Source of the DNA: Escherichia coli
GTDB taxonomy: Bacteria; Pseudomonadota; Gammaproteobacteria; Enterobacterales; Enterobacteriaceae
Length of the DNA: 64,000 nucleotides
NCBI RefSeq assembly: GCF_003334355.1
Contig: NZ_QOWP01000001.1
Direction: 5' to 3' (one strand)
Shown: one piece after another, positions 5,550-10,982 of the stretch
Numbering within the stretch: position 1 is the first letter of the stretch
Layout: every line of letters begins with the position of its first letter
Notes under the pieces: generated by a model
Databases searched by the model: none
What the model was told of the DNA's origin: nothing
Seen by the model: the letters and a program-made list of their open reading frames with translations, nothing else
Translations under genes and position numbers: made by a program

Positions 5550-5580
5550 ATAGACAAAAGCGTTTGTCCGGTTTGCAGGG

Positions 5581-6669
5581 TTAATTGATGGTTGGCAAGG
5601 AAGGCGTAAAGATTACCGACAATTTCCCCATGTAATATCCAGCCTGTTTGTCCATCACGCTAAATTTTTCTACTGCCAGCGTTAATGGCGTTGGCACACA
5701 CATTACGGCATAGCGGATCCCTGGCAATACGACCGGACGCACACGTTTCAGGTTAATGCTGTTCCAGACCATATTTTCATTATTGCGCACATCAATTTGC
5801 CCACCGGTTTCCGGGTTGTACATTTTGACCCGGTAATCAATGCGTTCTCCCTCGTCGGTGGTGGTCCCTCCCTGACGATAGATAGAGAAGTAACCGTCTC
5901 TGCGCCCTGCGGCGGGTCGCCCTTCATCTTTGAGCATGATTTCATAACTGATGGCATTACCGTTAAAACCATCGTACAGGCACATGTCCAACATGGTCAG
6001 ATCTTGCGCGTAGTTGCTGCCATTAACGCTCCCTGTTGGATGCAAGTCTAACTGCACCCGTGGCGTGGCGTGGGCGAACTCCGGGAAGAACACGTCGATA
6101 TGGTTGGGGTCGAGAACATTAAGCTTAATATCAGCCTGATAATCTGTTGCCGGGTAGCTAAAATGGAGTTTAACTTTCCCTTCCCATAAACCGCCAATCG
6201 GCAGTTTCTTCATTTCTTCTTGCTCAATATACAGAGTTAAAACTTTTGTTTTAGCCAGATAACCAACGTTATTAATCGTATCTTTACATTGATAACCCGT
6301 CCCATCATCCAGCCTTTTCTTATCGTACCACCCCTTACACGGTCCGTCCTCCCACACCTGAACTGTCATATACCCTTTCAGTTTAACCGGCCAGCGCATA
6401 CCGCTGCGTTTTTCAGTTAGATAAATTTGCACGACAGAAGTATTACCTGCTGATGTACAAGTCTGCTGTGAATCAGGGTAGCTACATTGAAAAAATGAAA
6501 ATGTTGTACTGTAACTCACCTCCGGTGGGGGCTCCTCATTCCAGAAGTAATAATCCGCTCTGCCAGATGCCAAATCGTACGTAATTTCACTGGTCACGTT
6601 AGGAGCTGCCTGAACGCCAGTAACCGCACCACACAAGCCCAATATCGCCGCAATCAATCGATTTCTCAT
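5581..6669 (-). CDS. Class 5 pilus minor subunit / tip adhesin (CfaE/CooD-like), 362 aa
   Basis: Last gene of the chaperone-pilin-usher-adhesin array; N-terminal signal peptide MRNRLIAAILGLCGAVTGVQA; length matches CooD/CfaE (~360 aa); GGGAGG RBS; ATGA overlap with usher stop. Confidence 0.75.
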   Translation of the reverse strand: MRNRLIAAILGLCGAVTGVQAAPNVTSEITYDLASGRADYYFWNEEPPPEVSYSTTFSFFQCSYPDSQQTCTSAGNTSVVQIYLTEKRSGMRWPVKLKGYMTVQVWEDGPCKGWYDKKRLDDGTGYQCKDTINNVGYLAKTKVLTLYIEQEEMKKLPIGGLWEGKVKLHFSYPATDYQADIKLNVLDPNHIDVFFPEFAHATPRVQLDLHPTGSVNGSNYAQDLTMLDMCLYDGFNGNAISYEIMLKDEGRPAAGRRDGYFSIYRQGGTTTDEGERIDYRVKMYNPETGGQIDVRNNENMVWNSINLKRVRPVVLPGIRYAVMCVPTPLTLAVEKFSVMDKQAGYYMGKLSVIFTPSLPTIN

Positions 6670-9350
6670 GGTGCAACCTCCCTTTGCGCCGTCTGAACGT
6701 TTCCACGTAATTTAGGCTGTTTCAACTGTGCCTGAACCTGAATGGACTCCGGTAATTGTGAATAAGTCACCACACTACATGTGACATCTCCGCTGTAACG
6801 AATGCTGGCGCGTTTCTTTACAACACTCAGCGGACACTTAAGGAATTGCTGCCCGGAAAGCAGATATAGCTCTTTTTCGCTACCGTTAATTTCAAGTGTA
6901 AATCCGCCATCTTCAGCTACCAGTAACATGGCGCTATTCAGACCAACCAGCGGGAATTTCTCTACCGATGCTGGTAATAACAAGCGACCGATATAGTTGT
7001 AATTAAAGCTGGCAGACACTTCGCGATAGCGCAGTTTGCCAGGCAACAACATTAATTCACGATTCCCCGCACCGTTAATGATGTTTGTTGTCCCTTGTTG
7101 ATTGCCCTGGCTACTGTCGTTAACCTCAACAAAACCAGACTGAAATCCAGGATAAGGGAACAACACACTGTCGCTTTGACCAAGCTGCAACGTTCGGCTG
7201 CCTGCCACCCGCGCTTCGAGTTGCAGATCCTGACTCTCTTCATCCTGTTCAGAGAAGCCTTTCACATCCACCAATACCGCACCCAGCAAATCGTCTGTAC
7301 CACTGGCACCCAAATTAACGCCATAGCGACTGACAGCCAGTGTAGAGCTGTAAGTCCCCGTAAAGGCCGAGAGATGATCATGATTCTTACGGTCATAACT
7401 GTCAGATACGGTAGCGTAGACATTTCCGTATTGACCATCCCAACGCCCGTTAACCGCGCTGTTTATGGTATCGGTGTTCAGGCCCCCAACGGTTACGCCA
7501 AGTTCTTTATGGCTGAATGAATCGTTATAAAAAGTATGGGATAACTGCCATGACGTTTGATCGCCATCCTGATCGCTATAACGATAATCCGTAGAAACAT
7601 TGGTTGAATGGCTGTTGTTATTGCTGTCCATCGTTGGCGTGTCAGATAACGAAAACGATAAGTACAAGCCGTTGTCGTCGTTATCGCCACCGTTGTCATT
7701 ACGATGGAAAACACCAACCGAAGTACTCAAGATCCAGTCACGCATCACAAAAGCGCGGGAAGCGCTAAGTTGTACAGTTTCGGAGATACTTTGCGCAGTT
7801 GTCTGGCGAAGATAGTTATTTTCAAAGCTCTGCTGTTTATCCCAACGCAAACTATCATCAGTGTTATTTTGTGTGCGGGAATAACCCAGCATCATATTCC
7901 AGCCGACAAAATTCTGTGAAACCGTCGCGGAAATACTTTCATAACAGCTTAAGGCGTTATAGCTCTCTCTGCTGTCGGTTGCACAAGCATCGCCGTCAGA
8001 GTTGGTCCGATAAAAGCCCAACGTCGGCCATCCCGAATTACTCCAGTTGGCCTGTTGCATATCACCTTTGCCGCCGTCATCGTTACGGAACACGCTGGCG
8101 CTGATTGCAAGATTCCCTGCCCCGCCTAAATTTGCCGTCCAGTCATTACCTAACTCGAAAGCACTCACATTATCGGCATTCGCCAGCCCTGCGTAGAGCT
8201 CATATTGCGGATGTAATGGCAGGCGTACCCCCAGTTGATAAGCTGAACTTTCATCATCAGAAGCCTGTGATGTAGTTTTACCTGCCTGTAAGAACCATTG
8301 CGCATTTCCGTCCGTCAGACCGCCTGTTTTGGTAAACGGTACTAGCTCGGTGCGGGTGAGTTGGTTATTTTCATAGACTTTTAACGCTACGCTATAGCTA
8401 CCCGGCGGAAAGGAACTGGTATCAATAAATTGCGAACCACTATTGAGATAAAACGATCCCAGAAGTTGCTCATTACGATAAGCGTCAACACGAGAATTGC
8501 GCGAAAGCAGGACCATTACCGGGGTTCCCTGCTGGCTTTGCGCCTGGTTTAAATAGCTAAGAGTCGACCCGATACGCATCCCGTCGATTGCACCGAGTGG
8601 CAAAAAGTTAAAGGTAAAGTTCCCGCCTTGTGCATTAAATAGCGTGCGGTTGTCCATGCGCCCCGCCTGCACATAATAACGACGTAAAAAATCATAACGA
8701 TAATAGAGATCGCTGACATCAGCATTACTGTCACTGACATCATCTGCATCATAACCGTTGAAATTCCAGTGTGCACCAATATAGCTATTTTCTGTTATTC
8801 CCAGCGCACCGTTTCCCTGAATAGACAACAATTGGTAATCATCCTGTGCCAGAACATTGATGTCTTGCTGATGTATAAAAGCGTTAACCGTATTTTTGTC
8901 TGGATTTAAATATAATGACTTCGCATCGAAAGCTGAATTCCATTGCGGATTAATAAACAACGTTGCCGAACTTTCTTCATCATTATAGATTATTTCCAGC
9001 GTATCGGTATTCAGAAAACCACACCCTGAGTCAGTACGTACATAACCGCAAGCCAATTCACCGTGGCGAGCTAGCGGCTGCGATAATTTTTCTTTCACTA
9101 TATGCGCGATTTTCTGATCGTCGACATCCAGTTCCAGCTTGTTATATAAACTTGCTGGATCAAGAAATGTTACGGTATCAAGATTAACCATTGCATAATA
9201 TTTACCGAGATTTTTCCCTGAAAAATAAACCTCGATATACTCCTGCTGTCCCTGAGCAATAACCTCAAACCCTGCGGGGATTTTGGTTAATGCCGCCTCT
9301 GCCGGGCTGAGACTCGCCAGGATCAAAAGAGCCAGTAATTTTTTATCCAT
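6666..9350 (-). CDS. Class 5 pilus outer-membrane usher (CfaC/CooC-like), ~894 aa
   Basis: Large secreted ORF rich in Asn/Ser/Tyr/Gly, typical of a beta-barrel usher; start chosen at MDKKLLALLILASLSPAEA (AGGA RBS) rather than track start 9368; positioned between pilin and adhesin as in coo/cfa operons. Confidence 0.8.
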   Translation of the reverse strand: MDKKLLALLILASLSPAEAALTKIPAGFEVIAQGQQEYIEVYFSGKNLGKYYAMVNLDTVTFLDPASLYNKLELDVDDQKIAHIVKEKLSQPLARHGELACGYVRTDSGCGFLNTDTLEIIYNDEESSATLFINPQWNSAFDAKSLYLNPDKNTVNAFIHQQDINVLAQDDYQLLSIQGNGALGITENSYIGAHWNFNGYDADDVSDSNADVSDLYYRYDFLRRYYVQAGRMDNRTLFNAQGGNFTFNFLPLGAIDGMRIGSTLSYLNQAQSQQGTPVMVLLSRNSRVDAYRNEQLLGSFYLNSGSQFIDTSSFPPGSYSVALKVYENNQLTRTELVPFTKTGGLTDGNAQWFLQAGKTTSQASDDESSAYQLGVRLPLHPQYELYAGLANADNVSAFELGNDWTANLGGAGNLAISASVFRNDDGGKGDMQQANWSNSGWPTLGFYRTNSDGDACATDSRESYNALSCYESISATVSQNFVGWNMMLGYSRTQNNTDDSLRWDKQQSFENNYLRQTTAQSISETVQLSASRAFVMRDWILSTSVGVFHRNDNGGDNDDNGLYLSFSLSDTPTMDSNNNSHSTNVSTDYRYSDQDGDQTSWQLSHTFYNDSFSHKELGVTVGGLNTDTINSAVNGRWDGQYGNVYATVSDSYDRKNHDHLSAFTGTYSSTLAVSRYGVNLGASGTDDLLGAVLVDVKGFSEQDEESQDLQLEARVAGSRTLQLGQSDSVLFPYPGFQSGFVEVNDSSQGNQQGTTNIINGAGNRELMLLPGKLRYREVSASFNYNYIGRLLLPASVEKFPLVGLNSAMLLVAEDGGFTLEINGSEKELYLLSGQQFLKCPLSVVKKRASIRYSGDVTCSVVTYSQLPESIQVQAQLKQPKLRGNVQTAQREVAP

Positions 9351-9392
9351 GGCAATCCTGAAATCCATAACAAATACTAAAACAGTTAAAAT

Positions 9393-10687: not shown

Positions 10688-10936
10688 ATAGATTTGATCT
10701 TACAATATTGATTCAAAAAAGTTAGTGCATTAGATGTGTATATTTATTGTAAGTCAACATGAAAAAGTATTTTTAGTTAATATTAAATTTAAAAGCGAAA
10801 AATTAACTTACTGAAATATAGCAATTTTCACAATAGAGACACTTCATTTTTAGGAATTTATAAATATTCACAATCTTGATTAAATACATTATTTCAATCA
10901 TCAAATTTATATATCAACAATGGCATACCCATAAAT
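10688..10936 (-). promoter_or_regulatory. Extremely AT-rich leader/promoter region of the class 5 pilus operon
   Basis: ~250 bp of very low GC immediately upstream of the chaperone gene, with no ORF; typical of H-NS-bound fimbrial promoters. Confidence 0.5.
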
Positions 10937-10955
10937 AAAGTGGTATGATAACTTT
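10937..10955. promoter_or_regulatory. Putative ExuR operator in exuR promoter (AAAGTGGTATGATAACTTT)
   Basis: Near-identical to the reverse complement of the motif at 3760-3778; lies ~30 bp upstream of exuR ATG. Confidence 0.55.
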
Positions 10956-10982
10956 GTCCGCATTCCACTCCGGGAGACGCAT

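Follow-up and report, generated by a model that had tools for sequence, protein, structure and literature searches.

A chromosomal class 5 pilus operon of the CS1-like (eafABCD) type between exuT and exuR of Escherichia coli, and the variability of its predicted tip adhesin

Gene content and family assignment of the exuT–exuR operon

The stretch of Escherichia coli DNA analyzed here (64,000 nucleotides of contig NZ_QOWP01000001.1, RefSeq assembly GCF_003334355.1; referred to as the window) carries a chaperone-usher pilus operon between exuT, which ends at 5488, and exuR, which starts at 10983, with uxaC beyond exuT on one side and yqjA and mzrA beyond exuR on the other. The gap holds four intact minus-strand open reading frames (ORFs) within 5550–10960, encoding a chaperone, a major pilin, an usher and a tip adhesin, the gene order of class 5 systems (Table 1); none contains an internal stop or frameshift in the window translations, and the usher stop and the tip adhesin start overlap by 4 nt. 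A preliminary description made from the sequence alone had reported four co-directional genes of these sizes in the order CooB-A-C-D/CfaA-B-C-E, put the spacing between exuT and exuR in K-12 at about 130 bp, and regarded the ~5.4 kb as accessory DNA at a core locus, all of which agrees with the ORF list and with the 129-bp exuT–exuR spacer of a K-12-type genome, the same 129 bp being found in EC958 (B2). The composition check that it had proposed gave 45.0% GC for the operon against 51–54% for the flanking genes, and a GC content at third codon positions (GC3) of 34–50% against 58–66%.

Family assignment was based on sequence, domain and fold comparisons. All the chaperone and pilin motifs quoted in the preliminary description were recovered from the translations, namely VRVISKSNEVQYIK, LPAGSSKTVR and YRVKFEAV in the chaperone and ITVTANVD, ALPKAV, YLPG and VSIYLSQ in the pilin; the chaperone motifs align with the same motifs of a CfaA-like chaperone and the pilin ITVTAxVD/ALPxAV with those of CfaB. 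In comparisons with the sequences of solved structures, the chaperone matched the CfaA-like chaperone 4ncd_A (2.3e-35) and CfaA (1e-31) and the classical chaperone SfaE at just 4e-4; with a Pfam PapD_N match that was weak (2.7e-7), it is of CfaA/CooB-like and not PapD/FimC-like type. The pilin matched Pfam Fimbrial_CS1 (PF04449; 3.5e-23) and the structures of CfaB (1e-21), CS17 (1.7e-15) and CS1 CooA (4.9e-10), and its mature N-terminus VQKDITVTANVDA aligned with the CfaB donor strand VEKNITVTASVDP. The usher gave no match among solved-structure sequences and is placed by Pfam (Usher_TcfC 1.8e-59, TcfC E-set 2e-20 and CooC_C 2e-5) and NCBIfam (TcfC 2e-164), its alpha-clade lineage in the Nuccio-Bäumler scheme being assigned from domain matches, not from an usher phylogeny. 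Together with the tip adhesin described below, these matches (E-values from 1e-21 to 1e-164, far beyond chance) identify the genes as those of a class 5 (alpha-clade, alternate chaperone-usher) pilus operon, in line with the CS1/CFA-I-type call of the preliminary description, for which the profile and sequence comparisons that it had suggested have now been made.

Relationships to named class 5 systems were also compared. The operon shares with CFA/I (CfaABCE) and CS1 (CooBACD), of class 5a and 5b, the gene order, four homologous parts and the pilin donor strand but, unlike CFA/I and CS1, it is chromosomal at a fixed core locus rather than plasmid-borne, is found mainly outside enterotoxigenic E. 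coli (ETEC), and comes with neither an Rns/CfaD gene nor the corresponding binding-site architecture. Salmonella Tcf (TcfABCD), likewise a class 5 operon on the chromosome of an enteric bacterium and not known to have an AraC-type activator beside it, was the top-scoring NCBIfam family for the chaperone, the usher and the tip adhesin. Tcf differs in that it occupies another locus, that TcfD is 34–35% identical over just 57–64% of the tip protein, and that all scores fell below the family cut-offs. Similarity to the Burkholderia cable pilus (CblBACD) extends to a tip protein in Pfam CblD and to CblA as the best NCBIfam match of the pilin, but the host is distant and the cbl locus has two-component regulators of its own. 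Orthology to Tcf or Cbl was rejected, since all NCBIfam equivalog scores lay far below their cut-offs (bits/cut-off: TcfA 140/500, TcfB 94/384, TcfC 549/1428, TcfD 105/589, CblA 115/225). The same four-gene order is found in unnamed class 5 operons of the Klebsiella oxytoca group, Kluyvera, Enterobacter mori, Citrobacter and Buttiauxella.

At the level of individual operons, the match is to fimbriae that have already been published. ECSE_3375-3378 was described in 2008 as a “CS1-like fimbrial operon” of strain SE11, shared by E24377A, HS, ATCC 8739, 536 and SMS-3-5 but missing in MG1655, O157 Sakai, CFT073 and UTI89 (PMC2608844), and in 2011 an alpha-type cluster eafABCD “between exuT and exuR” was reported that E. 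coli W and Crooks carry and K-12 and B lack (PMC3032704). In two later papers the name “CS1-like” is credited to the 2013 catalogue of Wurpel et al., as typical of phylogroup B1 (PMC4552563, PMC6033998), and CS1-like is a target in polymerase chain reaction (PCR) typing of urinary isolates with primers giving a 755-bp product (PMC8249706). These primers match the window usher at 7970–7988 (2 mismatches) and 7234–7253 (1 mismatch), giving 755 bp. With the same locus, four-gene alpha organization and presence/absence pattern, the exuT–exuR operon is the CS1-like/eafABCD operon and differs from it in no respect of kind, the window carrying a minority allele of the tip adhesin domain.

Table 1. 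Features of the pilus operon and its borders in the window (positions are those of the window; aa, amino acids).
Feature	Position	Strand	Remarks
exuT terminator hairpin	5518–5539	+	left boundary of the accessory segment directly after
Tip adhesin gene, complete	5581–6669	-	362 aa
Tip adhesin C-terminal pilin domain, residues 186–362	5584–6114	-	conserved; inside the CblD match
Tip adhesin N-terminal adhesin (receptor-binding) domain, residues 23–185	6115–6603	-	hypervariable; putative cassette
Tip adhesin signal peptide, residues 1–22	6604–6669	-	hydrophobic N-terminus MRNRLIAAILGLCGAVTGVQA followed by AP in the translation; putative cleavage site between them
Usher gene; outer-membrane usher, TcfC/CooC-type	6666–9350	-	894 aa, RefSeq start in near-identical genome; first ATG at 9368 would give 900 aa; Pfam and NCBIfam
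G+C-rich hairpin and T-run between pilin and usher genes	9393–9414	-	terminator-like match
Major pilin gene; CfaB/CooA-type	9441–9941	-	166 aa; N-terminal donor strand after signal peptide
Chaperone gene; periplasmic chaperone, CfaA/CooB-type, eafA position	9971–10687	-	238 aa; ORF and homology
Control region shared with exuR, divergent	10688–10982	.	295 bp, 25.4% GC
Candidate operon promoter TTGACT-N17-TCTAAT	10729–10757	-	~40 nt upstream of chaperone ATG
Alternative candidate promoter TTGATA-N18-AATAAT, extended TG	10888–10917	-	back-to-back with exuR promoter
ExuR-like operator AAGTGGTATGATAACTT	10938–10954	+	exuR promoter; marks right boundary region, context rather than proven part of the operon

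Fold and variability of the predicted tip adhesin

The product of the last gene matched Pfam CblD (6.7e-105 over residues 72–357) and, by sequence, CfaE (6e-27 over residues 61–361). An AlphaFold model built from a 91-sequence alignment had a mean predicted local distance difference test score (pLDDT) of 89.4 and a predicted template modeling score (pTM) of 0.81, with pLDDT values below 50 at residues 12–20, and in a Foldseek comparison with solved structures the best match was CfaE (2hb0) over the full length, with a template modeling (TM) score of 0.72–0.73, an E-value of 2e-24 and 25% identity. On the evidence of sequence and model, the operon does encode a CfaE-like two-domain tip adhesin, contrary to an earlier genome report (PMC3032704). 

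The likeness to CfaE does not extend to all residues of the presumed binding site. The Arg181/Arg182 pair of CfaE (chain residues 159–160), of which Arg181 (in CfaE and CooD) is the conserved arginine that ETEC class 5 adhesins need for adherence, faces a gap in the window tip adhesin (...KLHFS--YPAT..., HMMER), the loop alignment being uncertain at 25% identity, and this gap falls in a stretch that varies among Escherichia alleles. The pair belongs to the CfaE binding site, as the title of a cited 1999 paper also suggests. That site is described as containing three arginines (PMC12442223). Because the pair faces a gap within a variable stretch, the pilus probably binds another receptor than CFA/I does, and one that varies from strain to strain.

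Comparison of alleles showed that variation is concentrated in the adhesin domain. Between the window and the O104:H4 allele, the pilin is 100% and the usher 98% identical, with the tip adhesin 79% identical; nucleotide identity falls to 46–76% only across ~6080–6660, the remainder of the four genes being 92–100% identical. In a set of nine alleles, aa identity was 51–80% in the adhesin domain, apart from one 99% pair, and 85–100% in the pilin domain. In a search of 5.8 billion proteins, full-length Escherichia tip adhesins formed at least 18 clusters at the 90% identity level, with 71–99% identity, and in the alignment of 18 such clusters the pilin domain was nearly invariant at every column, with four cysteines and a framework also invariant and residues ~44–60, ~96–140 and ~165–176 freely variable. 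The window allele was found in 225 of 1908 operon carriers, the commonest allele being ~72% identical to it in DNA, and an E. albertii allele is closer to the window allele than other E. coli alleles are.

Several pairs of alleles joined near-identical pilin domains (proportion of synonymous differences, pS, 0.04–0.10) to synonymously saturated adhesin domains (pS 0.68–0.86), as in O104-SMN197, ampC69-PK12 and PK12-23CRST, which are 99% identical in the pilin domain and 51–65% in the adhesin domain. Because near-identical and saturated segments are joined in this way, the comparison suggests that recombination has exchanged the adhesin-domain segment. A further apparent case, an adhesin swap in RM11911 (which shares the other three proteins with O104:H4), was dropped, the adhesins differing by just 1%. 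The ratio of nonsynonymous to synonymous differences (pN/pS) in the adhesin domain peaked at 0.56–0.66 across residues ~101–135, and pairwise Nei-Gojobori ratios never exceeded 1 (peak pN/pS 0.66). Since synonymous sites are saturated in this domain, the ratios do not support a claim of positive selection or of simple relaxation; diversifying selection is plausible, though not demonstrated by the pairwise ratios. We tentatively suggest that the adhesin domain may behave as a recombining cassette whose diversity has been maintained over a long time by balancing or diversifying selection. If so, the pilus would be expressed in vivo, strains would differ in receptor or host tropism or escape antibody or phage, and the diversity would be comparable to O-antigen and flagellin variation.

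Control region, distribution and history of the locus

The control region shared with exuR contains conserved blocks that three E. coli alleles and the E. albertii sequence have in common, and its low GC content makes it a plausible H-NS target, by analogy with other class 5 operons. Two candidate promoters were found. The hexamers and spacing of that at 10729–10757 are identical in the window, O104:H4 and K56-43 alleles though the spacer sequence differs, and because its -10 hexamer TCTAAT is without the consensus A at position 2, this promoter would be weak or activator-dependent. The candidate at 10888–10917 is the region's best consensus match (10/12). The hairpin at 9393–9414, between the pilin and usher genes (folding energy -14 kcal/mol, z = -2.4), has a stem that recurs in three E. 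coli alleles and in E. albertii; the hairpin probably acts as a partial terminator, reducing transcription into the usher gene and raising the pilin:usher transcript ratio. Rfam returned no structured RNAs in 5000–11500. For phase variation, the control region contained one GATC site (no pap-like pair) and no invertible-switch repeats, and no recombinase gene was seen nearby.

No AraC/Rns-type activator gene is annotated anywhere in the window, as read from the annotation of the near-identical PSS-12 genome (5 mismatches over the first 17 kb and 99.97% identity over the rest), in agreement with the preliminary description, which had noted that no Rns/CfaD-type activator is linked to the operon. 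Nor was the arrangement WWWWWWWTATC with a -10 element 21–23 bp downstream found in the control region of the three alleles scanned, in which no site was conserved, so that neither gene content nor the binding-site scan shows the Rns/CfaD dependence of ETEC class 5 factors.

The ExuR-like operator at 10938–10954 is invariant in four aligned alleles, and 17-mers like AAnTGGTnTGAtAACTT occur at 3761–3777 (minus strand, upstream of uxaC), at 3942–3958 (plus strand, in the uxaC-exuT spacer) and at 10938–10954 (plus strand); the three are probably ExuR operators, a prediction made with a loose search pattern whose matches overall were no more frequent than chance. The 17-mer at exuR lies ~20 bp from one candidate pilus promoter. 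More speculatively still than the diversified adhesin cassette suggested above, pilus expression may be tied to hexuronate sensing through this shared region.

Among the 5426 complete E. coli genomes compared, 1901 (35%) contained the 5.5-kb operon segment at ≥80% coverage, and its matches were chromosomal in 5108 of 5109 places, the remaining one being a plasmid record; neither the plasmid location nor the ETEC association of the classical class 5 factors was seen. Carriers included O104:H4 and O26:H11 strains and commensal, Shiga toxin-producing (STEC), enteroaggregative (EAEC) and urinary strains, with human, bovine, porcine, avian and canine isolates represented, and the operon was absent from K-12, B (REL606), EC958, most ST131/B2 reference strains and O157. 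In one carrier, the bovine isolate SMN197SH3, exuT beside the operon is annotated as frameshifted (2641–3946 of the SMN197SH3 locus). In E. albertii, too, the operon lies between exuR and exuT. The closest tip adhesins outside Escherichia, 40–49% identical, are from the Klebsiella oxytoca group, Kluyvera, Enterobacter mori, Citrobacter, Buttiauxella and some Salmonella, and in the Klebsiella and Kluyvera loci examined, unlike in E. coli, the homologous operon is flanked by lysR and a racemase gene. In the latter loci (~3,980–9,120 of the locus sequences and downstream) it is two genes away from a cluster of an oligogalacturonide ATP-binding cassette (ABC) transporter, a pectate-lyase-family gene and a porin. 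The pilus operon thus adjoins hexuronate or pectin catabolism genes in two genomic contexts, which may be coincidence.

The borders of the segment are uneven. The window follows the K-12 sequence up to the exuT terminator hairpin and diverges from 5540 on; similarity to K-12 resumes imperfectly ~45 bp before the exuR start, at the operator, and the empty haplotype holds a 31-bp segment that the occupied haplotype is without. The last ~45 bp upstream of exuR (10937–10982), which include the right half of the operator and the -10 region, are not the same in haplotypes with and without the operon, and for this reason exuR expression may differ between operon-bearing and empty strains. A search for direct or inverted repeats at the borders gave just 7–8-bp chance matches, and the K-12 spacer segment was not found inside the window. 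No integrase, insertion sequence (IS) element, tRNA, target-site duplication or terminal repeat was found at the operon locus.

Divergence at synonymous sites (dS) among three E. coli lineages was 0.13–0.48 for the usher, 0.13–0.53 for the pilin and 0.31–1.0 for the chaperone, against 0.14–0.19 for the flanking exuR. The value for exuR (10983–11759) itself seems high for a core gene, and would fit hitch-hiking beside an old polymorphism. All four genes were intact in each of the nine genomes sampled, eight of them from diverse E. coli and one from E. albertii, and the ratio of nonsynonymous to synonymous divergence (dN/dS) between alleles was 0.01–0.07 for the chaperone, pilin, usher and pilin domain of the adhesin (0.02–0.07 for the chaperone alone). 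By these ratios the genes are under purifying selection and the operon is therefore not decaying, which argues for function. In Shigella boydii and others the tip adhesin is truncated to 210 aa, a product that comprises the pilin-domain portion only and is 93% identical; this suggests that the operon has been inactivated in Shigella.

Elsewhere in the window, a second chaperone-usher operon, yraHIJK (gamma-1 type), lies at ~53,884–58,891 on the plus strand, as mapped from the PSS-12 annotation. The annotation also gives a complete aga/kba N-acetylgalactosamine/galactosamine cluster at ~42,009–53,483, including agaV, agaW, agaE and agaF, a cluster in which K-12 has a deletion, and yhaC (~32,673–33,861) is annotated as frameshifted in PSS-12, a reading of the PSS-12 annotation and not of the window sequence.

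Proposed assembly, competing explanations and significance

Taken together, these observations make it very probable that the window carries a chromosomal alpha-clade pilus operon of E. coli, catalogued as CS1-like/eafABCD, that is functional rather than decaying. The assembly steps proposed for it follow those of CFA/I and CS1. All four products carry Sec signal peptides, as read from their sequences; the CfaA-like chaperone would cap each subunit in the periplasm by donor-strand complementation, and the CfaE-like tip adhesin would reach the TcfC/CooC-type usher first and start assembly. The 166-aa major pilin would then polymerize beneath the tip, the N-terminal strand of each subunit inserting into the preceding one. 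Transcription probably begins in the 25% GC region shared with exuR, the conserved hairpin behind the pilin gene probably makes pilin transcripts more abundant than usher and adhesin transcripts, and H-NS probably holds expression low in laboratory conditions, as in other class 5 operons. Within Escherichia the operon would be a long-established occupant of this locus, retained by roughly one E. coli genome in three.

Several points limit or weigh against this reading. H-NS silencing is proposed from AT-richness and from the precedent of CFA/I and CS1, and the promoters are called as consensus matches, of a kind no commoner in the control region than in shuffled sequence. The searched literature, which consists of catalogues, typing studies and one transcriptome, contains no functional study of CS1-like/eafABCD pili, no experimental sign that the pili are made and no named receptor, so that the system appears to be functionally uncharacterized, as the preliminary description had stated. 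In the transcriptome, an RNA sequencing study of STEC, the usher and major-subunit genes were differentially expressed and higher in strains associated with hemolytic uremic syndrome (HUS), which counts in favor of function; unequal gene presence (15 vs 12 strains) confounds the difference and may partly explain it. The E. coli W genome paper states that the eaf cluster is without a tip adhesin gene and that function is unlikely (PMC3032704); its statement on the adhesin is contradicted by the present analysis. The last point would make the operon a cryptic remnant, carried with no working adhesive pilus through a missing adhesin or a lost activator, and the lack of a linked activator gene, the conserved -10 element TCTAAT without its key A and the truncated tip protein of Shigella boydii could be read in the same way. 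Against this stand a predicted CfaE-fold, CblD-family adhesin, genes intact in 9/9 sampled genomes with very divergent alleles, dN/dS values that remain at 0.01–0.07 despite dS of up to ~1 and retention in 35% of genomes, and we regard a remnant as highly unlikely. A different account of the missing activator is that a plasmid regulator of the Rns/CfaD/AggR type acts in trans, so that the operon is on only in pathotypes such as ETEC E24377A and EAEC O104:H4. ETEC class 5 operons do depend on Rns/CfaD (PMC5554520), the AggR/Rns sites are degenerate (an A/T tract, then TATC) and evolve easily in A/T-rich DNA (PMC6392122), and the operon is present in O104:H4 and reportedly in E24377A. The control region of three alleles, however, showed neither the site and -10 arrangement nor a conserved site. 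Most of the listed carriers, moreover, are commensal, animal or STEC strains, which are not known to carry Rns/AggR-type regulators, and such a regulon is improbable.

The functional reading also includes a history: rather than a recent insertion, the operon seems to be a long-standing presence/absence polymorphism that probably arose by an early horizontal transfer. The preliminary description had presented it as inserted between exuT and exuR; of this, the accessory nature of the DNA stands, and a recently acquired island in a formerly contiguous locus is unlikely. GC and GC3 below the flanks, the 129-bp spacer in K-12, REL606 and EC958 and the different locus of the Klebsiella and Kluyvera homologues would all suit a recent arrival. 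The absence of any mobility signature, the location of the E. albertii operon and the depth of the E. coli alleles (dS 0.13–1.0, well above exuR) do not, and with the 31-bp segment and the ~45 bp of differences neither haplotype can simply be derived from the other; the operon was probably acquired by horizontal transfer, but in the distant past. That a classical PapD/PapC (gamma- or pi-clade) system has been mistaken for class 5 is extremely improbable, and this assignment was rejected: the weak PapD_N and SfaE matches are expected from the ancient fold shared by both chaperone classes, all strong matches are to class 5 proteins, and the usher matches TcfC/CooC and not the classical usher family. 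None of the observations named in the preliminary description as grounds for abandoning its reading was made, there being no best matches to PapD/PapC proteins, no copy at this locus in K-12 and no frameshifts.

As a gene cluster the operon is ordinary and already catalogued. The preliminary description had seen it as the strongest candidate in the window for an unexplored system, which does not hold for fimbriae that have been named, PCR-typed and found in 35% of complete E. coli genomes. What is new is modest, namely the presence of a CfaE-like adhesin, purifying selection on the operon and the cassette-like hypervariable adhesin domain, and the literature holds a wrong statement that the CS1-like/eaf cluster has no adhesin. 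There may also be consequences for typing. A study of STEC O22:H8 is cited as finding “cfaA, cfaB, cfaC, cfaD/cfaE” (PMC12547504). Such calls in non-ETEC strains may be the chromosomal CS1-like operon mislabelled by virulence-factor databases, and “cfa” reports from virulence-factor pipelines in these strains could mislead pathotyping. For the biology of E. coli, the operon is among the most widespread adhesin operons of the species without a known receptor, expression condition or phenotype. A sharply bounded hypervariable adhesin domain on a conserved pilus offers a testable hypothesis of strain-specific tropism, for which the adhesin alleles are ready natural variants for receptor mapping.

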